Shown here piece after piece: positions 35,067 to 49,431 of a stretch of DNA of 64,000 bases. The translations under genes and the position numbers were made by a program. The number at the start of each line of letters is the position of its first letter. Positions within the stretch are counted from its first letter, which is position 1. The stretch comes from Candidatus Hermodarchaeota archaeon. Its GTDB lineage: Archaea; Asgardarchaeota; Lokiarchaeia; Sigyniarchaeales; SOKP01. The stretch is from the NCBI GenBank assembly GCA_048885925.1, contig JBHLLG010000004.1, forward strand, positions 41,617 through 105,616, in the 5' to 3' direction. The notes beneath the pieces were generated by a model that was given only the letters and a program-made list of their open reading frames with translations, was not told where the DNA came from and did no database searches.

Positions 35067-36377
35067 TTATATTTTAATATTAATATGACCATAAGTGCCA
35101 CCACCTCCAGGAGTATATTCAATTTCATTATTTCTGAGAGCTTTTACGACTAAAGCTATATTAACGTCAAGTTTTTCAATTTTACTTATTGGAATATCTA
35201 TTAAAATTTCAAATTCAGTTCCTAGTTCTCTGATAATTTTATTATATTCGTTTAAAACCGTCTTACTTGTTAAGCTTTTAATGTTTTTAATAGAACGGAT
35301 AATATCTATTAATGGAACTGCATTAATATATGGAGGTCTATGATCGGGATGTCTAGGCTCTTTATATGTAGAAATTTTTTCAATCCTTTCACTAACTCCT
35401 AATTTAATTTTAAATGATTTATTTAATTGTTCTTTACAAGCTGAACAGATCATCTTACTATTTGAAACTTTTTCTAAATAATCTAATCTTGAAGCTATAG
35501 GATCTACTGAGTAGTAAGTAATAAAATTATCATTAATTGAATATTGATTAAAAATCAAATCCGTTTGTTTTTTTGTTTTCTTAAACATTATCCTTCTCCT
35601 ACATTTACTACAGAACATAACATAATATTTCCCTAGTTTAGGATTTAAACCAACATTTAATATTATTTTTCTTCCATTTTTTCTCTCTATTGCTTGTACA
35701 ACTTCAACAAATGATGGATTATCAATATCAAACCTATTAAATTCTCTTCCCAAAGATCGTGGATCTTGTGAATGTGCATCACTATTACTTAGAAATGTGA
35801 CATTTTTTAGACATTCTAATCTGTCTGCAAGTTCAGTATTGGCAGAAAGTCCTAACTCAATAAATTTAATTTTCTGAGCAGCATTAGAATAACAATCCTC
35901 AAGAGTTTTGAATTTATTTTGTCGAAAGATTGCTTTAAAAGGTGTGAAAGCATGAGCAGGACCAATCAACCCCCCCTCATCCGAAATAATATCAGTTAAT
36001 TCTGCTGGAGATAGATTTACTCTTGGTCGCCCACCCCACTCACCTAAAATATTACTTGAATAAGGTTCTAATTTTTTTTGAATAGCCTCTACCATATTGA
36101 AATCTTCGAAAAATATTACTTCATGAACATTTTCTTTATCCTCTATTTCAGTTTGAAGAATAAAATAAATATCCTTATAATAATAAGCTCCATCTCTATT
36201 TTTTTCCAAATTACTTTTTAAGTGTTTAAGCCAATTTGGTTGTAAGACATCACCCGTACCTAGAATATGCAAACCTTTTTTTTTACAAGTATCGAACATT
36301 GTATCTAGATTTAATGATTTCGACACTCCTATTGAATGTGGAGAATGTATATGTAAATCTGCGTTAAAAAAATCCAT
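35067..36377 (-). CDS. Endonuclease Q family (PHP domain) protein
   Basis: ADLHIHS, GTGD, PAHAFTP, ELGLS, SNSDAHS, LGRE, C..C/C..C, PGGGGTYG. Confidence 0.9.
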   Translation of the reverse strand: MDFFNADLHIHSPHSIGVSKSLNLDTMFDTCKKKGLHILGTGDVLQPNWLKHLKSNLEKNRDGAYYYKDIYFILQTEIEDKENVHEVIFFEDFNMVEAIQKKLEPYSSNILGEWGGRPRVNLSPAELTDIISDEGGLIGPAHAFTPFKAIFRQNKFKTLEDCYSNAAQKIKFIELGLSANTELADRLECLKNVTFLSNSDAHSQDPRSLGREFNRFDIDNPSFVEVVQAIERKNGRKIILNVGLNPKLGKYYVMFCSKCRRRIMFKKTKKQTDLIFNQYSINDNFITYYSVDPIASRLDYLEKVSNSKMICSACKEQLNKSFKIKLGVSERIEKISTYKEPRHPDHRPPYINAVPLIDIIRSIKNIKSLTSKTVLNEYNKIIRELGTEFEILIDIPISKIEKLDVNIALVVKALRNNEIEYTPGGGGTYGHINIKI

Positions 36378-36445
36378 TTAATTCATGAACTATTAATTTT
36401 ATTTATATTTTTATTTTAATATAATTAAGATTCTTTTATTTACGT

Positions 36446-37492
36446 TTAAATAATGATCATTTTATCATAGATAGGATCAGTTAATAGAATTCTAAAATAA
36501 GATAATGTATTTTTATAATTTATTTGTTCTAACTTACCTTCAACTAATACATCCTCACCTTTTTTTGCATGTTCGCAAAAACGACCCCTGAATGATATAA
36601 TTTCAATTATATCTTTTTCACGTATTTGATTTAATTTAAATTTGGTTTCGAGCATTTTTTTAGTATTTATTTTATATGAGCAAGGTGTAAAAAGAGAGTC
36701 TGTTGAATCTAAGATATTCGCTTTGAGTTTCACATGTCCATAATTTTTAAACTGATAATCATAAAAATTTCCTTTCCAGTCTCTAGGGTTTTTTATATAT
36801 CTAATAAAAAAATTACGATCCATAAATTTACCTTGATGTTGCTTCCTTTGTTCAATTTTCAGAAAATTTTCAAATGAAATACTGGATCCACCAGCTCTCC
36901 ATTGATAATGAGATTTATATTCATCTAAATTATACTTCCGAAAATTACCTGATTTTTTAAATAATTCTGTCAATTTATCTTGAAAGTTCAAACTGGTTTC
37001 AGTACCATATATGATTACATCTATATCTGAATTGTTAGTATCTAACCCAACCATTGTTGACCCAGTAATTCCTATTGAATTCTGAGAAAGGTTCCCTTCA
37101 TTAATAAAAAACTCGCATAAATCTTTAGAAATTTTTTGAATTATAGATAAATTTTTTTCATTTAATAATTTTTTAAAGAAGCTGCTTGGAGTATAAATTT
37201 TTTTGATATCTTTTATTTTAACTCCTTGGACCTCCATATCGAGTTCTTTAGAAAAAAAAAGATATTTTGGATATTTCTCTCTTAAAAAATCATATCTTTC
37301 GTATAAGTTGTAAATTTTTTGAAACTTTATACCATCTTTCTCTCTATCTCCATCTGGATGAGGATAAAATCTTAAAAAGCAAATCTTACGTTCTTTTGGA
37401 TGAAGTAAACCTTTTACATCAAAAAATAAGTTATCTTTTTTTGTTTCTATATAATCCCCTTCAATACCTTTGATAATTTTCATTAATTTCAC
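36446..37492 (-). CDS. Archaeal nucleotidyltransferase domain protein
   Basis: GITGS..VG....SDIDVIIYG, FTPCSY, VEGKLE. Confidence 0.82.
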   Translation of the reverse strand: MKLMKIIKGIEGDYIETKKDNLFFDVKGLLHPKERKICFLRFYPHPDGDREKDGIKFQKIYNLYERYDFLREKYPKYLFFSKELDMEVQGVKIKDIKKIYTPSSFFKKLLNEKNLSIIQKISKDLCEFFINEGNLSQNSIGITGSTMVGLDTNNSDIDVIIYGTETSLNFQDKLTELFKKSGNFRKYNLDEYKSHYQWRAGGSSISFENFLKIEQRKQHQGKFMDRNFFIRYIKNPRDWKGNFYDYQFKNYGHVKLKANILDSTDSLFTPCSYKINTKKMLETKFKLNQIREKDIIEIISFRGRFCEHAKKGEDVLVEGKLEQINYKNTLSYFRILLTDPIYDKMIII

Positions 37493-37503
37493 AATAAATC
37501 TGA

Positions 37504-38640
37504 TTAATATTTTGAAGGAGTTTTCGATTTAATTTTATGCTTTGGTATAGTTTTAGTTTTCTTTATTTCCCTTTCAAAGTTTCTTTTTTCATTTAGAAAT
37601 CTTTGCTTATCCTGTTCTAATTTTTCTCTTTCACGTCTGATGATACTTTTCTCATTTTCTAAGTATGACTTTTCTTTTTCTAATTGTCTATAATCATTAT
37701 TTAATTTACTAAATTTTTCTTCTAATTTTGGGATTTTAGAGTTTAAGGAGTGATAAGTACTTTCTGCTCGAGGTAGCTTTTTCTCTAATTCATTTAATCT
37801 TGCTTCATGTTGCTTTCTTCTTTTTTCTAAATCTTTTACATCTTTTTCCATCTTTTCTTTAGCTTTTCGGAGATCTGCATTCTTTTTATCAATTTCACGA
37901 GCTTTTAGATCTAAATCTTGTTTTCTATAACGAGTTTTTTCTCTTTCTTCTTTCAATTTTTTTTTCTCGTCAGAGATTCGATTTTTTTCATCATTAATTT
38001 CCCTTTTTAAATTACTAATTTCTCTATCTAAATTATCTCTCTCTTTAGTTAAGTGTTTAATTTCATTTCTCAAATCCATTAACTTATCTTCTAAATTATT
38101 TATAGTTCTATTTAAAGCATCCTCTCTTCTTTCCATTCCGGGAAGTTTTGTTTTAATTTCTTTAATGCGATTTTCTGTGTTTTCTTTTTCTTTCTCTAAT
38201 AAATTCTTTTCTTTTCCTATTTGTTCTCGAACTTTATTTAATTTTTCTTGGAATGTTTCTAATTCAGCTTTTTTTTGATTTAACTCTTCATTTCTTCTTC
38301 TGAATTTTTCTTTAAATTGTCTTTCTTTATTAGTTAAATCATCATTTTGCTGTTGAATTTTACTCTTTAGATAATTTAATTCTTTTTCTAGCTTATCGCG
38401 TTTTTCAAGAAGATCTTTGATTTCTAATTCTCGATTTTTTCTTTTTTTTTCAAGATCTTGGACATTATCTTTATAATCTTGAATTTGTCTAACAACTTTT
38501 TCCCATTCGGTTTTTTCTTTATCTAATTTAACTCTTTCTTTTTTTATTTTTTTAAGTAGTTTTTTATCGGAAATTACTTCAATTTCCTCTTCGGGTGTTT
38601 TTTCTCGAATTTGATATTTAGGAATAGTTTCGTCATTCAT
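37504..38640 (-). CDS. Long coiled-coil protein
   Basis: Heptad-rich K/E/R sequence across about 330 aa, no ATPase motifs. Confidence 0.8.
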   Translation of the reverse strand: MNDETIPKYQIREKTPEEEIEVISDKKLLKKIKKERVKLDKEKTEWEKVVRQIQDYKDNVQDLEKKRKNRELEIKDLLEKRDKLEKELNYLKSKIQQQNDDLTNKERQFKEKFRRRNEELNQKKAELETFQEKLNKVREQIGKEKNLLEKEKENTENRIKEIKTKLPGMERREDALNRTINNLEDKLMDLRNEIKHLTKERDNLDREISNLKREINDEKNRISDEKKKLKEEREKTRYRKQDLDLKAREIDKKNADLRKAKEKMEKDVKDLEKRRKQHEARLNELEKKLPRAESTYHSLNSKIPKLEEKFSKLNNDYRQLEKEKSYLENEKSIIRREREKLEQDKQRFLNEKRNFEREIKKTKTIPKHKIKSKTPSKY

Positions 38641-38850: not shown

Positions 38851-39252
38851 ATGGGTTTTGATGATGATTTTGATGAAGATTTTGATGAAGAGCTAGACGA
38901 AGATTTGGATGAGGATTTGGATGAAAAAATAGAAGAACCTGCTTCAAAAGCTCCTACAGAAGTAGTTGAATCAAAAACTCCTGCAACTAAAGTTATTGTT
39001 GAGGGAAAAAAGATATCATTATATTTTATGTCGACAATAGGACCTGGAGAAAAAAAGCAAAAATTACTCGTAAATACTGGAAATAATGTTGGAGATGTTA
39101 AAGAAACTGTAGCAAACTTATTTGGATTAGATCCTGCTGATTTTCATTTATCATCTGGTGGAGTTACAATGGATGAGAATTCATATTTAAAAGATTATAA
39201 TATAAGTGATGGTGACGATATACTTTTAATTCCAGCGAGTACAGCTGGTTAA
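38851..39252 (+). CDS. Ubiquitin-like modifier 1 with acidic N-terminal extension
   Basis: Beta-grasp pattern LYFMST...VGDVKE..A...L..GG.TMD...LKDYNI.DGD.ILL ending STAG. Confidence 0.85.
   Translation: MGFDDDFDEDFDEELDEDLDEDLDEKIEEPASKAPTEVVESKTPATKVIVEGKKISLYFMSTIGPGEKKQKLLVNTGNNVGDVKETVANLFGLDPADFHLSSGGVTMDENSYLKDYNISDGDDILLIPASTAG
38857..38928 (+). repeat. Six degenerate 12-bp coding repeats, (F/L)D(D/E)(D/E/K)
   Basis: tttgatgatgat tttgatgaagat tttgatgaagag ctagacgaagat ttggatgaggat ttggatgaaaaa. Confidence 0.75.
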
Positions 39253-39297
39253 ATATTTAAGTTAAAATCAGTATATTTAAAATAAAAAATCTTTTTT

Positions 39298-40092
39298 TTA
39301 ACTCTTTTCTTTTCTTGAGGGAATTAGAGCAATTTCATCATCTTCGCTTATATCATAATCTTTTATTTGTAAGGTTTCATTCAATAATATTCCTCCAGAA
39401 GAAAGAAGAAAAGATTCTAGATCATAATCAAACAGTTTACCAATTCTCTCCTTAATTAAACTTAGTAATTCCATTCTCTCAATGATAATTATTTTTGTTT
39501 TTTCTCCAGGTTCAAGTAAAGACCTTACATAAACGCGGGTTTGATCTTCAAGGTCAATAGGATTTATAGGTGGTGTATATACAATATCTTCATCAACTCT
39601 ATCTCTATTCTTTAGCATATTTTCAATCAATACTTTTCTTTCATGTGAATTAAAATAAATCATTTCTCTAATAAACAAAATCTTATCCATTTTTGATAAT
39701 CCGAGAAGATTTATCTTATCCAATTCTTCTTGGCTAAAAATTGAAAAAATATATTTATCAATTATCGGCTTATCCTTATATGATTCATTCGATTCAATAT
39801 ATTCTTCTATTGAAGGCATAGCTTCAATATAATCATCAAAAATGCTAGTAGGTATCCTTTTAATTGATTTTTTTTCTGCAATAAACTTTTTTTTTCGTAC
39901 CTTGTCACCCCAATTATCTTGAGATTGAATAATAGTATAAATGGTACTTGTAGATAATATTGCTACACTCCCAATTGTGAGAGAAAAAAATAATGGAATA
40001 CTGTCTATACGATAAAAGAAAAAAGCTACATAAGCTAAAATAAAAAAAATATAAAGTGCAAAAACACTAAAAATTCTATATTTTTTCCTCAT
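39298..40092 (-). CDS. 2-TM membrane protein with C-terminal ubiquitin-like domain lacking a terminal Gly
   Basis: PGEK...IKE...LF..D...F.LSSGG..L.E...IKDYDISEDDEIALIPS matches the flanking Ubls; ends RKEKS. Confidence 0.8.
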   Translation of the reverse strand: MRKKYRIFSVFALYIFFILAYVAFFFYRIDSIPLFFSLTIGSVAILSTSTIYTIIQSQDNWGDKVRKKKFIAEKKSIKRIPTSIFDDYIEAMPSIEEYIESNESYKDKPIIDKYIFSIFSQEELDKINLLGLSKMDKILFIREMIYFNSHERKVLIENMLKNRDRVDEDIVYTPPINPIDLEDQTRVYVRSLLEPGEKTKIIIIERMELLSLIKERIGKLFDYDLESFLLSSGGILLNETLQIKDYDISEDDEIALIPSRKEKS

Positions 40093-40177
40093 AATTTTTT
40101 AAATAGATTTTGTTCTGAATTCTAAATATTTAATTTGACATATAAATTCCATTGGAATAAATTTGAAGTTTTAATAT

Positions 40178-40849
40178 TCATACTCCTTGAATTGATTTTT
40201 TAACTTGAGAATATTTTTCTCTATCTAACCTAAATAACTTTCTTTTTCCATCTTCTTCGATTCTTATCAATTTCAGATCTTTTAGAATATCTAAATATTT
40301 TTTTATAATATTATGATTTTTTTTCAAATTGACAGATATTTCTGTAATTTTCAGTTCTTTATTTGCTTCTTCCATAAAATTAATTATTTTTTGAACGATT
40401 TTCTTCTTCAAATAATAATATAATTCATCAAATTCAGGATTTGAATCAAATTTAAAGAAAATTCTGTGATTATTGATTTTTTTTGATCTAACAAAATTAA
40501 ATTTTTCTAAGCAGGATAAATGCCATAAAACTTGGTTGCTTCCGATATTTAAAACTTTCATTATTTTGTTAATATTAGATGGATTCTTTTTAATATAATT
40601 TAGGATCTCATTTCTAGTAGGATTTTCAACTATATTATTTTTCATTAGTCTAGTTCCAGGGATAATAATACGTCTTTTTAGTAACTTCTTTAAAATTAAC
40701 TCTATACTATTTTCGTTAATATTAGGATTATATTTTACCCTATTATTTATATAGGATATAATGTCTCTTATCGAAAAAAAGCTCTTTTTTGTTAAATACT
40801 CCTCTACTAATTCAAGAACAATAGGTTCAATATTATTAAGAGAAGTCAT
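40178..40849 (-). CDS. Tandem winged-helix transcriptional regulator
   Basis: ENPTRNEIL.YI..NP...WHL..LEK and a second wHTH. Confidence 0.8.
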   Translation of the reverse strand: MTSLNNIEPIVLELVEEYLTKKSFFSIRDIISYINNRVKYNPNINENSIELILKKLLKRRIIIPGTRLMKNNIVENPTRNEILNYIKKNPSNINKIMKVLNIGSNQVLWHLSCLEKFNFVRSKKINNHRIFFKFDSNPEFDELYYYLKKKIVQKIINFMEEANKELKITEISVNLKKNHNIIKKYLDILKDLKLIRIEEDGKRKLFRLDREKYSQVKKSIQGV

Positions 40850-41118
40850 AATCCTATATTATTAATATGTTGAAATTTAATGGGTTTTATAATTAAATAT
40901 TCTCTCTAATACAACATTTTATATTTTATATATATTAATAGGCATTCATACAATTTATAATATAATTTATTGAAATTCATAATTTCTCCATTTTATTCGG
41001 GATAAAGATCTGAAAAAACTTCAAAATCATTCCAAAGGGTTTTATAATATTTTTTTAACGCTATTTTATTAAATTTAACAAAATTAAAAAATCAAATAAT
41101 TAAAAAAAAGTGATATGA

Positions 41119-41451
41119 ATGAGTTTTGATGAATTTGATGAGGATTTAGGGATGGAGGAACCAGTAAAATCTAAAACTCCCGCTACTAAAATTCCTTCCG
41201 CAGGAAAGAAATTGACTTTATATTTCATGTCTACCATCGGACCTGGTGAAAAAAAGGAAAAATTAACTGTTAACGATAACAATCGTATAAGAGATATTAA
41301 AAATACATTAGGAAATTTATATGGACTTGATCCTAATGATTTTCATTTATCTTCGGGTGGAGTTACAATGGATGAAAATAGTACATTAAAAGACTATAAT
41401 CTTAATAATGGTGATGATATTCTTTTAATTCCTGCTAGCACAGCTGGATAA
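41119..41451 (+). CDS. Ubiquitin-like modifier 2 with acidic N-terminal extension
   Basis: Close paralog of 38851-39252; ends ILLIPASTAG; directly upstream of E1. Confidence 0.88.
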   Translation: MSFDEFDEDLGMEEPVKSKTPATKIPSAGKKLTLYFMSTIGPGEKKEKLTVNDNNRIRDIKNTLGNLYGLDPNDFHLSSGGVTMDENSTLKDYNLNNGDDILLIPASTAG

Positions 41452-41529
41452 ACTTATATAATTTTTTTCATAAACTATAATGTAAGGGCTTTAAGCCCTT
41501 AAATTTTTTTTATTTTATAATGATTATTA

Positions 41530-42765
41530 TTGGTGTTTATATTGAAAAATAGGTCAGATTTTTTTAGTAAAGAGCTAACAACGGAAGAGAAAAAATTATA
41601 CGACCGCCAATTTAGGCTTGAAGGATGGTCGCAAAAATTAGTAAAGAATTCTCGCGTTTTAATGATAGGTGTAGGAGGATTAGGGTGCGAAATTGCAAAG
41701 AATCTAGCAATGCTAGGAGTAGGGCATTTAGATTTAGTAGATCTTGATATCATTGAACATTCAAATCTAAATCGCCAAATCTTATTTGCTGGAGCAAAAG
41801 TAGGAGAATCAAAAGCACTTGTTGCAGCAAGAAAATTAACTGAAATTAACCCTAATACTATAATAAAAGGTTATCAAACTTCCCTAGAACGATTAGATCC
41901 AAGAATATATCGCGCTGCAGATGTTGTTATTGGTGGGCTTGATTCCATGAATGCTCGGTTGAATTTAAATGCTCAATGTATAAGATTTAGAAAACCATTA
42001 GTCGATGGAGGTGTATCTGGCTATCATGGTCATGTTTATACAATTTTTCCATTTAAAAATGCATGTTATGAATGCAATCCACTTCCGGTTGGAGAAAGTG
42101 ACGAAATGGCAGCGTGCACAGTAGTAGGCGTTCCTAGAAAGAGAATCCATTGCGTTTTTAAAGGAGACATGGCGTTTAAAGAAAATTTTGATAGAGATCC
42201 TAATCCAAAAAATATCAATGATATCAAATTTATACAAAAAGTTGCTAATGAATTAGTAAATAAACATAATTTTCTTCCGGAGTATACCGAAGATGATATT
42301 GTAAAGATAATTGATCGACATGATCCAGGAATAATTACCATAAATGCTGTCATTTCTGCGTTACAATCACATGAAGTTGTAAAAATCCTTCATTGGAAGA
42401 AAGGTCATACAGGTTTAGGTGAGCCTATTACTGATTATGTTATTTTCAATGCAATGACAATGATGTTTTATCATATTGAGAAAAAAAAAAATCCAGAATG
42501 TTCCCAATGCGGAAAAAATGTCCGGAGATTTTTAGTTAAATTAAGAAAAACTTCCCCTTGTATTAATATAATAAAAACTTTAGAGAAGCGTGGTTTTAAG
42601 CTAGATTCTGATCTAGAACCAGTATTAACATTAGTGGATTTTAATGATGTTAAGATGATAGATTTAGACCAGAATCCAATTGAAAATTGCTTAAGAGATT
42701 ATGAATTTATGACGGCTGCTGGATTTAAGGAAGGAGAAATTTTTGTAACTTTAAAATTGAAATAA
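41530..42765 (+). CDS. E1 ubiquitin-like activating enzyme (UBA3/UBA2-like)
   Basis: YDRQ, GVGGLG, DLD..E.SNLNRQ, CYEC/CSQC Zn site, catalytic AACTVVGVPR...HC, C-terminal extra domain. Confidence 0.9.
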   Translation: MVFILKNRSDFFSKELTTEEKKLYDRQFRLEGWSQKLVKNSRVLMIGVGGLGCEIAKNLAMLGVGHLDLVDLDIIEHSNLNRQILFAGAKVGESKALVAARKLTEINPNTIIKGYQTSLERLDPRIYRAADVVIGGLDSMNARLNLNAQCIRFRKPLVDGGVSGYHGHVYTIFPFKNACYECNPLPVGESDEMAACTVVGVPRKRIHCVFKGDMAFKENFDRDPNPKNINDIKFIQKVANELVNKHNFLPEYTEDDIVKIIDRHDPGIITINAVISALQSHEVVKILHWKKGHTGLGEPITDYVIFNAMTMMFYHIEKKKNPECSQCGKNVRRFLVKLRKTSPCINIIKTLEKRGFKLDSDLEPVLTLVDFNDVKMIDLDQNPIENCLRDYEFMTAAGFKEGEIFVTLKLK

Positions 42766-42875
42766 AAATTCTGTTTGAAAAGGTTTTATATGAAAATTTT
42801 ATGAAATAAAAAGAAATATAACTATAAATTTAGATATTTAAAATAAACGATAGAAAAATAAAAAGGGTTGAGAAT

Positions 42876-43403
42876 ATGAGTATAAGAAGTAGTCGAATAT
42901 CTCAAGATTTTGCGGGATTAAAAAAGTTATATAAAGATGGAACTATTGTCCAGTTAAAACCATTTAATCCCAATAGAAAGAGTATTGATCATTTAGCTAT
43001 CACTATTAAAGGTCCTAAAGGTACTGCCTATTCAGGAGGTCTTTTTAAATTAGAAATGAGATTCCCTGCACAGTATCCCAAACAGCCACCTTTTGTTAGA
43101 TTGCACACTCCAATCTGGCATCCGAATTTTTGGGCAAAACCTAGTGAATATAAAGGCCAGAGGAATATTTGCTTAGCATTAGTAGATCCCTCATTAGTAG
43201 GCAAAAAAGGAGGATGGAGCCCATCAAAAACAGCTGTGACAGTTGTTCAGGCTATAATTGCTATGCTGAACACAAGGGGTAAATATGTAAATCCCACTGA
43301 TGTTTTTAATAAAAAAGCAGCGATAGAGATGATGAAAAATCAAAAATTGTTCGAGAAAAAAGTAAAAAACTTAGTTAAAAAGTATGCAAATAAAAAGTGG
43401 TGA
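42876..43403 (+). CDS. E2 ubiquitin-like conjugating enzyme
   Basis: GP.GT.Y.GG.F, FP.QYP..PP, WHPN...ICL, WSP. Confidence 0.93.
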   Translation: MSIRSSRISQDFAGLKKLYKDGTIVQLKPFNPNRKSIDHLAITIKGPKGTAYSGGLFKLEMRFPAQYPKQPPFVRLHTPIWHPNFWAKPSEYKGQRNICLALVDPSLVGKKGGWSPSKTAVTVVQAIIAMLNTRGKYVNPTDVFNKKAAIEMMKNQKLFEKKVKNLVKKYANKKW

Positions 43404-44227
43404 AATTTAAGATGGGAGAGGATAATTCACATTTAGACTCTATTAAAGAAACAATAAAGAAGAAAATTAAAGATGTAATTAAGAAGGAATTGTTAGAAGA
43501 AATCTATGAAGAATTAAAAATGGAAGAGAAAGAGTTAGTAGATGAAATTAGTTCAATGATCTCTAAAAAAGATCCTGAAACCCAAACGATAAAGCATTCA
43601 ACTACTCCAGCCAATTCACAATCAATAAAGGAAGAACAAAAAATTATTTTTGAAGATAAAATAGAAAAAGAAGTATATATTTCAGTCAAGGCAATATTAA
43701 AAGTAGCTAGTCATGCTCTTAAATACGCTAATTCTAAAATTCCAAAAAAAAGTTGGGTGGAAGTAATAGGATTACTAGCAGGTAAATTAGATAATAAAAA
43801 TGGTATTTTACACATTGAGGATTATTATCCAATGGGTCATGGAACAGCTGTTTATGCTGAAATAAAAGATTATCGAAACTATGCTAGGGCATTCCGAGAT
43901 ATTAAAAAACAACAGTTATTTATCTGTGGTTGGGCACACAGCCATCCTTCTTATGGTTGTTTTATGTCTAATGAAGATATTGGTACTCAAGCAAGATATC
44001 AAAAGCTCTGGGATAAAGCTGTTGCCCTAGTTATCGATCCGTATCTTATTGATGGAACTTCAGCTGGTTTTGAAATTTATCGTGCTGATTTAGCTTCAAA
44101 AACGTGGTATCCTTTAGTATATGGTATTAAAGGTTCATTAGATATTCGGATGTTACCAGAAATACTTAATTTTATGAATCCAATAATTGAAGGCAAACCC
44201 GTATATCTCGAATATGATGAAAATTGA
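43397..44227 (+). CDS. JAMM/MPN+ isopeptidase (Rpn11/CSN5-like) with helical N-terminal extension
   Basis: EVIGLL.G, GWAHSHPSYGCFMS.EDI.TQ..YQ, ALVIDP. Confidence 0.92.
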   Translation: MVKFKMGEDNSHLDSIKETIKKKIKDVIKKELLEEIYEELKMEEKELVDEISSMISKKDPETQTIKHSTTPANSQSIKEEQKIIFEDKIEKEVYISVKAILKVASHALKYANSKIPKKSWVEVIGLLAGKLDNKNGILHIEDYYPMGHGTAVYAEIKDYRNYARAFRDIKKQQLFICGWAHSHPSYGCFMSNEDIGTQARYQKLWDKAVALVIDPYLIDGTSAGFEIYRADLASKTWYPLVYGIKGSLDIRMLPEILNFMNPIIEGKPVYLEYDEN

Positions 44228-44255
44228 AACAGATAATTTTGGTGATGAATAAACT

Positions 44256-45413
44256 GTGGCTAAAGTTAAATCTGTTGCAATTGTTCTAGGGATATTTTCA
44301 TTAATAGGCATAATACATGGTGTTATTTCAAATTCTTTTAACATATTTATAACTTGGGTATTAATTGGAATCTGGTTGATTTATTCTTTTAAAGTATTTA
44401 AAAATATTAAGCAGTATCGCGAATTTAATTCTCCTCATAATACTGCTTTCTTTATTATAAGTCCTATTTTTGTTGGAATTTTTTATTCAATTTGGAGTAA
44501 TTTTACTGGTATATTGGGAGAGAATCTTTTAGAAGGTTCAGATTTATATTTAAGTTGGTGGAGTATATTATTTGGTTTTCCGTATGTGTTATATGGTTCA
44601 ATATCATTATATCGTTGTTTTAAAAAATACCATGTAATTTATTTTGGTACAAAATCAATAAAAGCCCGTACTTTTGGATATATCTTAGGTCTATCAACTA
44701 TAATTTTTATAATTATCTATTGGATAAGTTTTTATTCTGTTGTTGACTTTAGTGAATCTTTACTAACACCTCTCCATTTTCTAATAGATCTCAATCTTCT
44801 CATATTCCTTATTAGTACTATTTTAATATTAATTGTCCCCGGATTAATTGGAGGTCAAACCCGTCTACCACAATTAAGTAGAGACTATATTTCACAACGA
44901 ACACGTAGATTAAGCCGATTAACTTCACCTAGAATAACCTCAACTCCTCGTAGGCAGAGAGAAAGTTCTCGTAGTTCATCTAGATCTTCTCCCTCTCCTT
45001 CAATTAGTACAAGTACTCGCACATCGAGATCAGTAACTCATTCAGTAAGATCCACACCAAAAGCAAACAGAACAACTGTAAGTTCAAGAGCTAAAGCATC
45101 CACTCGAACTGTACATAGAAAAAATTTAGATCTATACAAACCTAAAGCCGCAAGTTTATCACCGGAAGACTTTAAATGCATTTTTTGTTTTAAATTACCG
45201 GAATTACCTAAAGATAATGGTAGAGGCATAGTACTATGTCCAAAATGTAGGTATCCTGCCCATGCAGATGAATTCAAAGATTGGCTTTCAAACTCTAACC
45301 TTTGCTCTCGATGTAATGCACCTATTTCAGGAGGTTTTAGAAGAAATCCTAGAATTATTAGTGTAAAAAATTATTTAATAATTTATAGAGATTTTCTAAG
45401 GAGAGGAAGATAG
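44256..45413 (+). CDS. Polytopic membrane protein with C-terminal RING-like domain (putative E3)
   Basis: About 6 TMs, S/R/T-rich linker, CIFC-x16-CPKC-x4-H...W...CSRC. Confidence 0.8.
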   Translation: MAKVKSVAIVLGIFSLIGIIHGVISNSFNIFITWVLIGIWLIYSFKVFKNIKQYREFNSPHNTAFFIISPIFVGIFYSIWSNFTGILGENLLEGSDLYLSWWSILFGFPYVLYGSISLYRCFKKYHVIYFGTKSIKARTFGYILGLSTIIFIIIYWISFYSVVDFSESLLTPLHFLIDLNLLIFLISTILILIVPGLIGGQTRLPQLSRDYISQRTRRLSRLTSPRITSTPRRQRESSRSSSRSSPSPSISTSTRTSRSVTHSVRSTPKANRTTVSSRAKASTRTVHRKNLDLYKPKAASLSPEDFKCIFCFKLPELPKDNGRGIVLCPKCRYPAHADEFKDWLSNSNLCSRCNAPISGGFRRNPRIISVKNYLIIYRDFLRRGR

Positions 45414-45445: not shown

Positions 45446-46390
45446 TTAAATTTTCATTTTCAATTGTTTTTTTAACTCCCCTATAGTGGTTTTTAGCTCC
45501 GCATAAACATTATGAGGATGGATAGACTCAAGACTTTCAATTTTAAATTTAACTTTAAAATTATCTTCGAGATTTGGAAAATTTCTCGAAATGAAATTTT
45601 TTGCCATTTCTCTAACAACATCTTCAGAAAATAGAGGTTTCAAGTGAGCAGTTCTTACTAATTCGGCTTCTTCAGGTCTTTTTAAAACAGATTGAATTTT
45701 ACCACTCATTGATTCCTCTATAACATCAATAATGTCCAAAACATCTATCTTATGATTATTTAAATCTTTTATTTGAACTATAATTGTTCCAATAGATCTT
45801 TGATTATGTGAGGAAAAGGGAAGGATATTTAAAAGTTTATTAAGATCGTCTTCTGTAACTTTGATATCTTTTCTAGATTTAACAACTTCTTGGGCGTATT
45901 CTAATGAGAGTTCTTTTGCACATGGACAAACTGTCATTCCAACTGCGCTTGCCCCTATGAAGTAATTATAATCGATATGATAATGACTATCTCGGTTTGC
46001 TTTTACAAAGGAACTAATATCATAGGATTTTTGAATAATCCTTTCATCATTTTCTCGTACTTGAACGATAATTTTTCCTTCCAATTTGACTTCTGCTTTT
46101 GAGGTATATGGATGGCGTTCCATTAATTTTTTCACTATTCTATCTCCAACGAGTTCAATAGTAGGAGTAGGTTTGAAAATTACTTCATTAATTACTTCTT
46201 CTATTGTTTCTGAAGTACGAGACATATGAATCCCTCGTTGTTCAGCGGGTAGATTAATTAATGCTGATATTCTTGGGTAGAAAGAATATTTCTTATTCTC
46301 TTGTACAATCTCAACTTTTTTTTCTAATTCTACAATACCGACTTTATCAATTGGTATATCTATTGCTGAACCAGAATCCTGTAAATCCAT
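45446..46390 (-). CDS. mptA: GTP cyclohydrolase MptA/FolE2
   Basis: DLQ, RGIHMSR, GMTVCPCA, SHNQRS, LKRPEE, EDVVR, ESIHPH. Confidence 0.93.
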   Translation of the reverse strand: MDLQDSGSAIDIPIDKVGIVELEKKVEIVQENKKYSFYPRISALINLPAEQRGIHMSRTSETIEEVINEVIFKPTPTIELVGDRIVKKLMERHPYTSKAEVKLEGKIIVQVRENDERIIQKSYDISSFVKANRDSHYHIDYNYFIGASAVGMTVCPCAKELSLEYAQEVVKSRKDIKVTEDDLNKLLNILPFSSHNQRSIGTIIVQIKDLNNHKIDVLDIIDVIEESMSGKIQSVLKRPEEAELVRTAHLKPLFSEDVVREMAKNFISRNFPNLEDNFKVKFKIESLESIHPHNVYAELKTTIGELKKQLKMKI

Positions 46391-46500
46391 TTTAAACTTA
46401 TGAATTTTGACTCACCAGAATCAAAAAATAATTTTATTTTGTTCTATTCATAAAAAAGATTAGATAAAATATAAAATAATTTGAATTTTTTAAGAGTAAA

Positions 46501-47673
46501 ATGCCTCATAAAAGTATTTTTAGCAATTTTGCATTAATAGGGGAAGATTTAGCATTAAAGCAAGATGTGTTTTTAGAAATTGATGAAGATGGAAAAATTT
46601 TAGAAATAATATATGATGATTTAGATACATCTAATATAACTACTGATAGTAGTCAAAATTACTTACTTTTACCTGGGTTTATCAATTCACATACTCATAT
46701 AGGGGATAATTTCGCTAAAGAATTAGGCTTTAACAAAGAATTAGTAGATATAGTTGCCCCAATGTTTGGTCTGAAACATAAACTATTAAGACAGACGCCG
46801 GACACGGTTAAAATTAAAGGAATTCAAAATGCTGTCTTAGAAATGCTTTCAAATGGAATTACATTTTTTATTGATTTTAGAGAAGAAGGAGTTGAAGGTT
46901 TGAATCTTCTAAAAAAAGCACTTATGGAAAGTCCAATGAATTATATGCTTTTAGGTCGGTTTATGGATGAGAGTGAAATAGAATCTATTTTTGAATTAGC
47001 AGATGGAATGGGATTATCTAGTTATAAACAAATTACTTCAATAAATAAAAAATTAATTATAGAAGCTAAACAAAAATTCAATAAAATTATTGCTTGTCAT
47101 TGTGCTGAAAATACCCGTAATATTAATCTAATAAATGATATGTTTAATGATGATTTTATTGATGTAATTATCCATGCGACAAAATTTATCAAAGATGATT
47201 TAGAAGAAGTAATTTCAAAGAGTAAATCAGTTGTTTTATGTCCTCGTAGTAATGGGTATTTTGGAGTCGGTTTTCCCCCCATTAACGAAATTATAAAACT
47301 AAAGATTCCAATATCTTTAGGTACCGATAATACAATGGTAAATAATACCGATTTATTTGAAGAGATTCGTTATTTGTATAGAATTTCTAGGATTTTATGC
47401 AATTATAATAAAGAACTTCAATTAACATCTAAAGATTTATTAAAAATGGTTACTATAAATGCGGCTAAGAATTTTCATCTTGAAAATAAGTTGGGTACAA
47501 TTTCTAAGGGAAAATTTGCTGATATTTTTCTAATTGACCTAAGCCACTCAAATCTTTTTTCTACCAATTTAGATTCTAATAATATATATGATTTAATTAC
47601 TCAAAGAACAAAATCAGAAAATATTATTAAGACATATATTAAAGGGGAGGTAGTATTTGAAAGAAGAGAATAA
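46501..47673 (+). CDS. Amidohydrolase/deaminase family protein
   Basis: PGFINSHTHIGD, DFRE, HCAE, CPRSN, LGTDN. Confidence 0.88.
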   Translation: MPHKSIFSNFALIGEDLALKQDVFLEIDEDGKILEIIYDDLDTSNITTDSSQNYLLLPGFINSHTHIGDNFAKELGFNKELVDIVAPMFGLKHKLLRQTPDTVKIKGIQNAVLEMLSNGITFFIDFREEGVEGLNLLKKALMESPMNYMLLGRFMDESEIESIFELADGMGLSSYKQITSINKKLIIEAKQKFNKIIACHCAENTRNINLINDMFNDDFIDVIIHATKFIKDDLEEVISKSKSVVLCPRSNGYFGVGFPPINEIIKLKIPISLGTDNTMVNNTDLFEEIRYLYRISRILCNYNKELQLTSKDLLKMVTINAAKNFHLENKLGTISKGKFADIFLIDLSHSNLFSTNLDSNNIYDLITQRTKSENIIKTYIKGEVVFERRE

Positions 47674-48322
47674 GCCTTATATCATTTTAAGCGCTGCAAT
47701 GACAATAGATGGAAAAATTGCTACTAAAAAGGGTGATTCAGAATTATCGGATAAAATTGATTGGAAAGAAGTCCATAAACTCCGAACCGAAGTTGATGCT
47801 ATAATGGTTGGAAAGGGAACGATTTTAAAAGATAATCCAAAATTGCATATTAAATATTATCATCATAAAGGATATTATAGAATTGTTTTAGATAGCAATT
47901 TAACCATTCCTTTAGAATCCAATATTATCTCTTTTCAACAAGAAATCTATCCCACTATTATTTGTACAACTGAAAATGTTCCAATAACTAAAGTAAAAAT
48001 GTATGAAGAAAAAAGTGTTAAAATAATTAAAGCTGGGGATGGAGAGCGTGTGAATTTGATTAAACTTTTACCAATCTTAAAAGATTTCGGAATAAATTAT
48101 ATTTTACTTGAAGGTGGTGGTAATTTAAATTGGAGTTTTATTGAAAATGATTTGATTAACGAAATAAGGCTGACTATAGCTCCTTGTATTGTAGGTGGAA
48201 AGGAAGCAACAAGCTTAGTAGAAGGAATAGGATTTGAAGAAATAGCTAAAGCTCCTAAATTTGAGCTTTTTGATGCTAAAGTTAGAAATGATTACATTAC
48301 ATTAAGATATAAAAGGAAGTAG
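47657..48322 (+). CDS. arfC: 2,5-diamino-6-ribosylamino-4(3H)-pyrimidinone 5'-phosphate reductase
   Basis: AMTIDGKIA, VHKLR...DAIMVG, LLEGGG.LN. Confidence 0.88.
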   Translation: MKEENKPYIILSAAMTIDGKIATKKGDSELSDKIDWKEVHKLRTEVDAIMVGKGTILKDNPKLHIKYYHHKGYYRIVLDSNLTIPLESNIISFQQEIYPTIICTTENVPITKVKMYEEKSVKIIKAGDGERVNLIKLLPILKDFGINYILLEGGGNLNWSFIENDLINEIRLTIAPCIVGGKEATSLVEGIGFEEIAKAPKFELFDAKVRNDYITLRYKRK

Positions 48323-48324
48323 TA

Positions 48325-49431
48325 ATGAGTGAATATAATATCAAGCAATTAATAGGTTTAACCAATAAACACCTAAGAGAAAAAGTTAAGGAGATAAAAG
48401 CACCATTATCTCATAGAAAACGCAACACAATTACTTATTCGAAAAATTTTACACTCTCTCTTTCGAACTTTTGTATTAATCAATGTGGATATTGTTTTTA
48501 TAATTATAAAATCCCGAAGTTAAGTGGTGAAGATAATGTAATATTGAAAGCAAAAGAGCAAATCGAGACAATAATTCAAAAAGCTATTCAATATGATTGT
48601 AAGGAAGCCCTTGTTATGTCTGGAGAACTTCCTGGTAATTTCATTGAAGTTAAAAAAGAATTAGAAAAAAGAGGCTATTCAGATTTTATACTATATGTGA
48701 CAGAAATATGTAAATATTTACTTGAATTTAATGTTCTTCCTCATACAAATTTAGGATTTTTGACTTATGATGAAATGAAAAAGTTAAAGGAAATTAATGC
48801 AAGCATGGGATTGATGCTTGAGAGCACCAGTATGAGACTTTTTGAAAAAGGAAAGGTGCATGAACATTCTCCTGGAAAATTACCAGCAAAAAGAATAGAA
48901 CACATAAGCAATGCTGGAAAATTAAAAATTCCATTTACTACAGGTTTATTAATAGGAATTGGGGAAACAATTGAAGATATAATAAAAGATTTACATCTAA
49001 TCAAAAAGATCCATAATAAATATGGACATATACAAGAAGTGATAATCCAAAATTTTGTAAATAAACAAGGGATTCCCTATCAACCTAAAAAACCTATTTC
49101 CATTGAAAAGATGCTCAAAATAACAGGAATTGCTCGTATCATTTTTGAAAATGAAATTGCCATTCAAGTTCCACCAAACTTAATAAAAGGTTTTGAAAAA
49201 AATTTTATCGATATAGGTATCGATGATTTTGGTGGAATTTCCCCCATTACGTTAGATTATATAAATCCTGAAAAAAGGTGGCCCCAAATTGATGATTTGA
49301 AAAAAATTTGTATTGATAAAGGTTATTTTCTTAAAGAAAGGCTCCCAATATATGATAAATTTATAAATAAAGAAGGATTTTGTTCAGAAAATATTAAAAA
49401 AATAATTGATAATATAAATTTAAATGCTTAG
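48325..49431 (+). CDS. cofG: FO synthase subunit CofG
   Basis: ITYSKN, CINQCGYC, LPHTN.G, SMGLMLE, PFTTGLL, DDFGGISP. Confidence 0.93.
   Translation: MSEYNIKQLIGLTNKHLREKVKEIKAPLSHRKRNTITYSKNFTLSLSNFCINQCGYCFYNYKIPKLSGEDNVILKAKEQIETIIQKAIQYDCKEALVMSGELPGNFIEVKKELEKRGYSDFILYVTEICKYLLEFNVLPHTNLGFLTYDEMKKLKEINASMGLMLESTSMRLFEKGKVHEHSPGKLPAKRIEHISNAGKLKIPFTTGLLIGIGETIEDIIKDLHLIKKIHNKYGHIQEVIIQNFVNKQGIPYQPKKPISIEKMLKITGIARIIFENEIAIQVPPNLIKGFEKNFIDIGIDDFGGISPITLDYINPEKRWPQIDDLKKICIDKGYFLKERLPIYDKFINKEGFCSENIKKIIDNINLNA

Follow-up and report, generated by a model that had tools for sequence, protein, structure and literature searches.

The locus described here raises the question of whether an Asgard archaeon can keep, beside its ubiquitin systems, a second ubiquitin-like protein (Ubl) with conjugating enzymes of its own. 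It lies in a stretch of 64,000 nucleotides, hereafter the window, from Candidatus Hermodarchaeota archaeon (contig JBHLLG010000004.1, positions 41,617 to 105,616), and comprises genes for two Ubls (Ubl1 and Ubl2), an E1, an E2, a JAMM protease, a putative membrane-bound E3 and several conserved partners. Our answer, to which we assign a probability of roughly 0.7, is that this locus encodes a dedicated eukaryote-type Ubl conjugation pathway, paralogous to the ubiquitin systems of the Gly-Gly (GG) type in the same genome. Domain identities, catalytic residues, conservation, synteny and paralogy support this view here. The window is AT-rich (G+C 25-33%) and sits on contig C4 of a genome (G000) of 3.9 Mb in 181 contigs with a completeness rated 95%. 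Between 37.5 and 45.4 kb of the window, nine open reading frames (ORFs), six on the plus and three on the minus strand, make up the locus:

37504-38640, minus strand: coiled-coil protein, Lys/Glu-rich, 378 amino acids (aa), with a K-x-K-T-P motif at both termini; synteny in 40 of 80 related loci
38851-39252, plus strand: Ubl1, β-grasp modifier of 133 aa, acidic in its long N-terminal tail and ending in PASTAG; Pfam ubiquitin 2.8e-5
39298-40092, minus strand: TM-Ubl, membrane-anchored Ubl-domain protein of 264 aa; Pfam ubiquitin 7.5e-5 at residues 189-256
40178-40849, minus strand: ArsR-type winged-helix regulator of 223 aa, divergent from the Ubl2 operon; HTH_5 1e-10
41119-41451, plus strand: Ubl2, 110 aa, with an acidic N-terminal tail that contains V-K-S-K-T-P, ending in LLIPASTAG; Pfam ubiquitin 1.6e-6
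41530-42765, plus strand: E1 activating enzyme of 411 aa; Pfam ThiF 9.1e-59 (198.9 bits)
42876-43403, plus strand: E2 conjugating enzyme of 175 aa; Pfam UQ_con 3.7e-26
43397-44227, plus strand: JAMM/MPN+ metalloprotease of 276 aa, extended at the N-terminus by about 90 residues; Pfam JAB 5.9e-14
44256-45413, plus strand: membrane/Cys-rich protein of 385 aa, putative E3; zf-RING_16 at E 0.053, far below the cut-off

The genes for Ubl2, E1, E2, JAMM and the membrane protein thus form a single co-directional row (41119-45413), in which the E2 and JAMM genes overlap by 7 nucleotides, the JAMM being read from a GTG start. Upstream of this row lie the second Ubl, the membrane Ubl-domain protein and the ArsR-type regulator, which also matches NCBIfam HTH_metalloreg (3.7e-11) and keeps its position in related loci. 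This layout agrees with a preliminary description of the window, all ORFs of which were found where they had been placed.

Ubl2 matches the Pfam ubiquitin model with 28.2 bits, above its cut-off of 25.4 bits, and Ubl1 (24.2 bits) and TM-Ubl fall just below it. Ubl1 and Ubl2 are 67% identical, both end in LLIPASTAG, and the acidic tail, which measures 30-55 residues in the modifiers, is N-terminal in each; these are the long acidic tails of the preliminary description. The solved sequences closest to Ubl2 are ubiquitins, and no UFM1 is found in the best 60 rows. If the ungapped alignment of Ubl2 residues 47-103 with ubiquitin residues 13-69 is extended, Gly110 falls on ubiquitin position 76, Ala109 on 75 and Ala106 on 72; NEDD8 likewise has Ala at this last position. 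Ubl2 is a β-grasp modifier whose C-terminal Gly is free to be adenylated, and the Gly-Gly end of ubiquitin proper is absent: Ubl1, Ubl2 and a lone third copy of such a Ubl on contig C11 of the same genome all end in Ala-Gly. The single Gly preceded by Ala, to which the preliminary description had drawn attention, is conserved, as 114 of the best 120 among 894 Ubl2 relatives, all at least 83% identical, end in PASTAG. The endings of 42 Ubl1 orthologues include PASIAG (20), PASTAG (13) and PASVAG (3).

The further claim that the modifiers need no maturation applies only to the three copies of this genome. From 449 proteins found at E <= 0.001 in a Ubl search of 50%-identity representatives, we chose by eye 39 diverse family members among the best 150, with one to three matched stretches and the family tail. 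Thirteen of them stop at Ala-Gly, 23 add 1-6 residues and 3 are without the ending. Tandem poly-Ubl precursors account for two of the 39: P0121 has three repeats and a fresh acidic tail after each, and P0122 has two repeats. In the four distant operons, ...S[TR]AG is present in each of the five Ubls, two of which stop at the Gly and three of which add 1-3 residues. As extensions and tandem precursors occur in relatives, the free Ala-Gly end is a trait of this genome and not of the family, and processing, presumably by the JAMM, would belong to the system. Members of the Ubl family also occur as fusions, namely at the C-terminus of a HerA-like ATPase and in proteins with CDC48_N and VWA domains (among P0136, P0153 and P0161), and one HerA-like ATPase-Ubl fusion ORF of 580 aa adjoins a distant operon copy (L098:11572-13314).

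TM-Ubl and Ubl2 share 36% identity over 73 aa (E 5e-15). The N-terminus of TM-Ubl is hydrophobic, with two helices when the sequence is read by eye. Its orthologues end in IPSRKEKN or similar, without Gly. As its Ubl domain has no terminal Gly, TM-Ubl is expected not to be conjugatable.

The affinity of the E1 and E2 to eukaryotic enzymes was gauged by bit scores against PDB sequences, a rough proxy for a phylogeny with named families. The best solved relatives of the E1 were SAE2 (1.6e-38, 136.2 bits), UBA1 and UBA3, with MoeB, ThiF and UBA5 lower, and the UBA3 alignment spans E1 residues 35-332, which is nearly the whole adenylation and Cys region. Aligned with SAE2, the E1 has its Cys196 opposite the Cys in 'pgCTirn', presumably the catalytic Cys of SAE2. 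CxxC motifs are found at 179 and 324, of which the one at 179 also aligns to SAE2. The ThiF match and the Cys196 alignment identify the enzyme as an E1 that has both an adenylation domain and a catalytic Cys. The E2 has the UBC fold with the HPN motif (82-84) and the active-site Cys99; H82, P83, N84 and C99 are invariant in 50 sequences of 54-97% identity, and matches to solved eukaryotic E2s reach 59.6 bits. The sequence of the JAMM protein shows Glu122 and, from residue 181, an intact H-S-H-x7-S-x2-D motif; among solved structures it comes closest to the Caldiarchaeum Rpn11-like protein (1.3e-14), with Rpn11 and CSN5 next. We propose that this protease would both process and remove the Ubl.

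The last gene of the row had been described as a polytopic E3, of which the polytopic part is in line with the predicted helices and the RING/E3 assignment is moderately supported by its ligand pattern and by weak but uniform fold matches. The full-length AlphaFold2 model, which is poor (mean predicted local distance difference test, pLDDT, 56.7), contains six helices (2-25, 28-53, 60-84, 101-124, 137-166, 173-198), then a disordered linker, about 90 residues long and rich in Ser, Arg and Thr, and finally a Cys-rich domain at the C-terminus. Across 43 sequences, four of them distant, C308, C311, C328, C331, H336, E339, W343, C350 and C353 are invariant, and Asp338 is conserved except in one distant homologue with His. 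A model of the last 96 residues reached a pLDDT of 74.7. With this domain model, the top rows of Foldseek were U-box and RING domains, and the VIA search against representatives gave Ring1b at Z 5.6 and a U-box at Z 5.4, with Z 3.6 at rank 50. Nearly all listed rows of both fold searches were RING or U-box ligase domains. The feature neighbours of the domain in the Atlas, archaeal zf-RING_2 clusters at <= 0.88, are at lead level only. As the individually middling matches are uniform in kind, the models suggest that the C-terminal domain is RING/U-box-like, and an E3 role for the membrane protein is probable.

The membrane part gave less. In the fold search with the full-length model, the best match was a syntaxin (Z 8.2), and Hrd1 chains at ranks 16 and 37 (Z 7.0 and 6.5) were within noise; a search of the Atlas with residues 1-205 gave no usable match. 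We also predicted a complex between the E2 and the RING-like domain in the presence of two zinc ions. It scored 0.42 (runs 0.42, 0.51 and 0.00; best control 0.01), which is graded as weak support, with at least 2% of contacts shared between the runs and a partner pLDDT of at least 80, and we gave it no weight in either direction. The mark is reached by 58 of 80 solved complexes and by 2 of 110 mismatched pairs, but passes at <= 0.60 are wrong in the majority of cases where the pairing was not already likely, and the calibration was made without small molecules and with other alignments. As many RING-E2 complexes have already been solved, the pass may moreover reflect likeness only.

In one genus, a lone Ubl adjoins an ORF of about 206-233 aa whose match to the membrane protein is confined to the linker and the RING-like part (G170:C6:374204-375292, G167:C230:2937-3961 and G169:C22:2751-3833). 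This would be a second Ubl-RING pair, which could be soluble.

A scan of species-representative genomes with Ubl2 found 132 relatives, and 80 loci were retained for comparison. The synteny check that the preliminary description had called for found the complete five-gene row in 40 of these 80 loci; ten further loci are cut by contig ends, 29 consist of a lone Ubl and one (L043) has an E1 fragment. As the gene order is kept in the 40 complete and the 10 cut loci, the arrangement is not due to chance. The upstream module of coiled-coil protein, Ubl1, TM-Ubl and regulator is found in 40 loci. When 399 Asgard genomes were scanned, the Ubl was present in 193 and the membrane protein in 195, largely in the same families: the respective counts were 118 and 116 of 133 genomes in family f1, 25 and 28 of 31 in f13, 19 and 19 of 22 in f16, 1 and 0 of 5 in genus g2, and 0 of 89 for both in the three largest non-carrier families. 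The row recurs in three distant families and is split into two half-rows in a fourth. The preliminary description had set the locus apart from the usual Asgard operon, and this had to be corrected, as it is instead a common core operon of Lokiarchaeia-type genomes.

Several of the compared loci deserve a separate remark. L043 (CP070831.1:661503-681832) lies on a closed chromosome and has the upstream module and Ubl2, followed only by an E1 ORF of 136 aa, without E2, JAMM or membrane protein. The same chromosome (G189) carries a further Ubl (568374-568697) and a membrane protein (564409-565569), and the L043 copy could be a partial duplication or in decay. L089 (DATKTW010000176.1), with an ArsR fragment, Ubl, E1, E2, JAMM and membrane protein, is filed as a bacterial metagenome-assembled genome (Nanopelagicaceae) and was probably mis-binned. 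The neighbourhood of the 29 lone-Ubl loci (among L015-L087) is not fixed; the commonest neighbour is a Gly/Ser/Asp-rich repeat protein of about 235 aa (10 of 29), and an acidic coiled-coil protein follows downstream in 7 of 29.

Is this system separate from ubiquitin in the same cell? The genome contains five ThiF-family genes and three E2-like genes above cut-off. On contig C40 (G000:C40:13583-17019), an E1 of 527 aa and an E2 of 173 aa are encoded on opposite strands, separated by two unrelated genes. The C40 E1 is 47% identical to the window E1 over 153 aa, and the C40 E2 is 39% identical to the window E2. A query with the C40 E2, which is 91-98% conserved in the genus, found a match in 39 of 40 related genomes. 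Where two E2 copies are listed, as in most of the 40 genomes, one is 68-98% and the other 40-45% identical to the C40 E2, and in the genome studied here the 40-45% copy is the window's own E2. Contig C41 (G000:C41:20900-23389) carries genes for a JAMM of 164 aa, a short E1 of 294 aa and a divergent E2-like protein of 192 aa, with a Ubl of 86 aa on the opposite strand that ends in GG plus two residues. This layout is Caldiarchaeum-like, and a RING gene could lie beyond this operon, as the contig ends about 200 nucleotides further on. A further Ubl on contig C34 (G000:C34:24257-24445) ends in GG plus one residue and has no obvious start codon in frame. The coexistence with GG-type Ubls and two other E1/E2 sets indicates that the Ala-Gly system is a paralogous pathway; by sequence, it is one of several in the genome, and the duplication is old. 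The claim of a distinct Ubl pathway parallel to ubiquitin is in this sense partly borne out, namely by the paralogous E1/E2 sets and the separate GG-Ubl operon.

The most serious alternative is that the locus is simply the described Asgard ubiquitin system, an orthologue of that of Caldiarchaeum and Helarchaeia, with the Ala-Gly end and the membrane anchor as lineage details and the other E1/E2 genes in other roles. The Ubl does match Pfam ubiquitin with solved ubiquitins as its nearest relatives, and the JAMM is closest to the Caldiarchaeum Rpn11-like protein among solved structures. In addition, InterPro-based surveys report a discrete Lokiarchaeota 'Ub genomic region', which lies apart from the ESCRT genes and would include the cluster (PMC9192718). 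As our operon fits this region, its genes have probably been counted before as part of it. However, GG-ended Ubls are present in the same genome, one of them within its own JAMM-E1-E2 operon, and the C40 pair (UBA1 143.9 bits, Ubc1/UBE2D 73.8 bits) outscores the window pair (SAE2 136.2 bits, 59.6 bits) against UBA1 and UBE2D. Moreover, both E2 paralogues exist side by side in most of the 40 related genomes, and the archaeal ubiquitins characterised so far are made as GG pro-proteins and have RING partners that are small and soluble (PMC5654768, bioRxiv 2023.07.25.550441). We therefore regard identity with the described system as unlikely, if with a real chance of being right.

The comparison with the described systems points in the same direction. 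The operon of Caldiarchaeum subterraneum likewise contains a Ubl, an E1 with catalytic Cys, a UBC-type E2 and an Rpn11-like JAMM, and it has a RING-type protein where ours has a RING-like one (PMC5654768, PMC6043591). Its tailless modifier is a GG pro-protein carrying nine additional residues, whereas that of the window has a free Ala-Gly and an acidic tail; its RING protein is small and soluble, whereas the RING-like domain here is the C-terminus of a six-helix membrane protein; and TM-Ubl, the coiled-coil protein and the regulator are conserved partners at the window, with none described there for Caldiarchaeum. The ubiquitin-ESCRT clusters of Helarchaeia, Odinarchaeia and Heimdallarchaeia share eukaryotic-type E1, E2 and Ubl genes, and a RING E3 that is putative at the window, with our locus but have ESCRT and UEV-Vps23 neighbours and a GG pro-ubiquitin (PMC9192718, bioRxiv 2023.07.25.550441), in contrast to the operon of the window with its Ala-Gly end and no ESCRT neighbour. 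In agreement with the preliminary description, which had noted no ESCRT genes in the window, no match to Snf7 or Vps25 (ESCRT-II) was found on contig C4; matches are on contigs C1 and C2. Within the scope of our literature search, which left supplements and subscription papers aside, neither an Asgard Ala-Gly Ubl nor its precursors, TM-Ubl, the K-x-K-T-P motif or the RING partner in the membrane turned out to be described, which is not proof that the Ala-Gly system is unpublished.

A role in defence against viruses, with the locus as a cassette of the Ubl-E1-E2-DUB (Bil/CBASS-Cap2) type of bacteria that would tag viral proteins, is a very improbable explanation. The content of Ubl, E1, E2 and JAMM does resemble that of bacterial defence operons (bioRxiv 2023.09.04.556158), and the adenylation domain of the E1 matches the PADLOC 'E1-E2' models with up to 63.5 bits. 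However, PADLOC (in its 2023 version, from which newer defence systems may be absent) matched the E1 only, compared with 198.9 bits for ThiF, and gave nothing for Ubl, E2, JAMM and membrane protein. As the neighbourhood is fixed across genera and the sequences are very highly conserved, with E2 identities of 87-97% within the family, the locus resembles a vertically inherited core function and not a patchy defence island, and we rejected the defence operon on these grounds.

Archaeal SAMPs are β-grasp proteins that are activated by MoeB/ThiF-type enzymes, and the E1 also matches MoeB and ThiF models, but a sulfur-carrier or SAMP-like system, in which the E1 would thiocarboxylate the Ubl without involvement of the E2, has next to no chance of being correct: a canonical UBC E2 with invariant Cys, the JAMM and the RING-like protein are co-conserved with the Ubl, the E1 remains far short of the cut-offs of the MoeB, ThiF and UbaA models of NCBIfam (UbaA 109.3 versus 450 bits), two shorter ThiF-family genes on contigs C23 and C34 suit sulfur-carrier roles better, and the modifier ends in Ala-Gly, not in the Gly-Gly that would go with a short E1 and no E2 in a SAMP/UbaA system.

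Mature UFM1 also ends in a single Gly. A UFM1 system was nevertheless rejected, as there is no Pfam Ufm1 match, the E2 has the canonical HPN, and UBA5 (1.5e-16) ranks far behind SAE2 (1.6e-38) for the E1. The Pfam Ufm1 model matched neither the modifiers (E <= 0.1) nor anything else in the genome; a UFC1 search of the genome was also without match, and the same search matched no control genome either. A study based on structure searches reports 'Ufm1 homologues' in Asgard archaea (PMC12962969), with no accession named in its text. The genome also contains a UFL1-like ORF of 799 aa (G000:C14:55121-55699) with an E3_UFM1_ligase match of 8.1e-8.

In its overall logic, the dedicated pathway that we favour resembles NEDD8 (UBA3/UBC12) and SUMO (SAE2/UBC9), each of which is a ubiquitin paralogue with its own E1 and E2 beside a ubiquitin-type system. 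In contrast to their heterodimeric E1s, the E1 of the window is a single gene, and the modifier ends in Ala-Gly. SUMO-2/3 form chains through an N-terminal tail that bears a lysine motif, and the N-terminal tail of the window Ubls with its lysine motif recalls this. For the membrane proteins, the nearest likeness is Hrd1, a polytopic RING ligase of eukaryotic membranes with a UBL-domain membrane partner, Usa1/HERP. The architecture, in which membrane helices precede a cytosolic RING domain and a membrane Ubl-domain protein is the partner, is similar to that predicted here; unlike the Hrd1 type, the RING-like domain of the window sits at the extreme C-terminus past a long disordered linker.

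The lysine motif also connects the modifiers with the coiled-coil protein, for which all coiled-coil Pfam matches are sub-threshold. The Ubl2 tail contains V-K-S-K-T-P, and the coiled-coil protein has ...I-R-E-K-T-P at its start and ...I-K-S-K-T-P-S-K-Y at its end. In the 5841 ORFs of the genome, [KR]SKTP was seen four times where 1.6 occurrences were expected from composition, and three of the four are within this system. Among 40 coiled-coil orthologues, 35 have [KR][ST]KTP within the last 22 aa, often two or three times, and 37 have [KRE]xKTP within the first 40 aa. The K-x-K-T-P motif is retained in 72 of 80 Ubl2-type proteins and also in the distant operons. We propose that the motif may be an acceptor or docking site. 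As it is common to the Ubl tails and the coiled-coil ends, the coiled-coil protein would then be the best substrate candidate, although it could also be an adaptor, and chains could form through the tail.

From these elements, the pathway could work as follows. Ubl1, Ubl2 and the lone copy from contig C11 would be made with a free C-terminal Ala-Gly. The E1 would adenylate the terminal Gly and load the Ubl onto its Cys196, from where it would pass to Cys99 of the E2. The RING/U-box-like domain of the membrane protein would promote discharge onto lysines of membrane-proximal targets, and the Rpn11-like JAMM would strip the tag and, in lineages with extended or tandem precursor Ubls, also expose the Ala-Gly. 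TM-Ubl, itself non-conjugatable, would probably dock Ubl-binding components at the membrane. The K-x-K-T-P motif would serve as acceptor or docking site, with chains running through the Ubl tail. That modification takes place at the membrane is suggested by the two membrane proteins in the cluster; like the chemical steps and the role of the motif, the membrane location of the targets is something that we infer.

Several points weigh against this picture. The conjugation system is known here from sequence and predicted models alone. For the Caldiarchaeum protease, an Ala in the penultimate position was reported to be more restrictive than the last Gly (PMC6043591), so the activity of the JAMM on an Ala-Gly end is an assumption. 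Where a RING has eight zinc ligands, the RING-like domain offers no more than seven Cys/His and the invariant Glu339, and its best Pfam match is zf-RING_16 at E 0.053, a model that 31 of 39 members match, weakly. Foldseek found nothing for the domain model at E <= 0.001 (best E 0.048), and the VIA scores (Z <= 5.6) fall in the tool's own 'middling' range. The full-length model has the low pLDDT of 56.7 given above, and its helical part matches generic helix bundles only. The enrichment of the K-x-K-T-P motif consists of small numbers, and the orthologues that carry it are mutually non-independent. Finally, the C40 pair, which has no adjoining Ubl, could also use the Ala-Gly modifiers.

A bolder form of the same idea, which we consider doubtful and offer as a speculation, is that the locus is an ancient third Asgard Ubl pathway, as conserved as ubiquitin, with its own E1, E2 and membrane RING and a modifier that ends in Ala-Gly and in some lineages comes from a poly-Ubl precursor, in which K-x-K-T-P would be a lysine code, chains would form on the tail, both ends of the coiled-coil protein would be tagged, and the two membrane proteins would be the prokaryotic counterpart of Hrd1-Usa1/HERP. 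If this were true, Ubl diversification and membrane ligases would both be older than eukaryotes.

Some genes next to the cluster may be mentioned here. Downstream of the row (45446-49431) lie genes for a FolE2-type GTP cyclohydrolase, the position of which is kept in related loci, an amidohydrolase, a reductase with a RibD C-terminal domain and a radical SAM protein, all of them cofactor-type enzymes. On the other side, 35067-37492 on the minus strand holds two conserved-looking ORFs, one of 436 aa without a Pfam match at E <= 0.001 and one of 348 aa that matches nucleotidyltransferase and DUF4269 models weakly.

Studies of ubiquitylation in archaea have so far centred on GG-type pro-ubiquitins and small soluble RING proteins. 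The operon analysed here indicates that many Asgard genomes keep a second, strongly conserved modifier together with an E1, an E2, a protease and a membrane RING-like protein. By sequence, trypsin would leave a remnant of 19 residues after the last Lys of Ubl2, and standard di-Gly proteomics would therefore miss the conjugates. The K-x-K-T-P motif gives a concrete first candidate substrate, the coiled-coil protein. If conjugation takes place as proposed, the splitting of pathways in the manner of SUMO and NEDD8, as well as membrane-anchored ligases, would have begun before eukaryotes.

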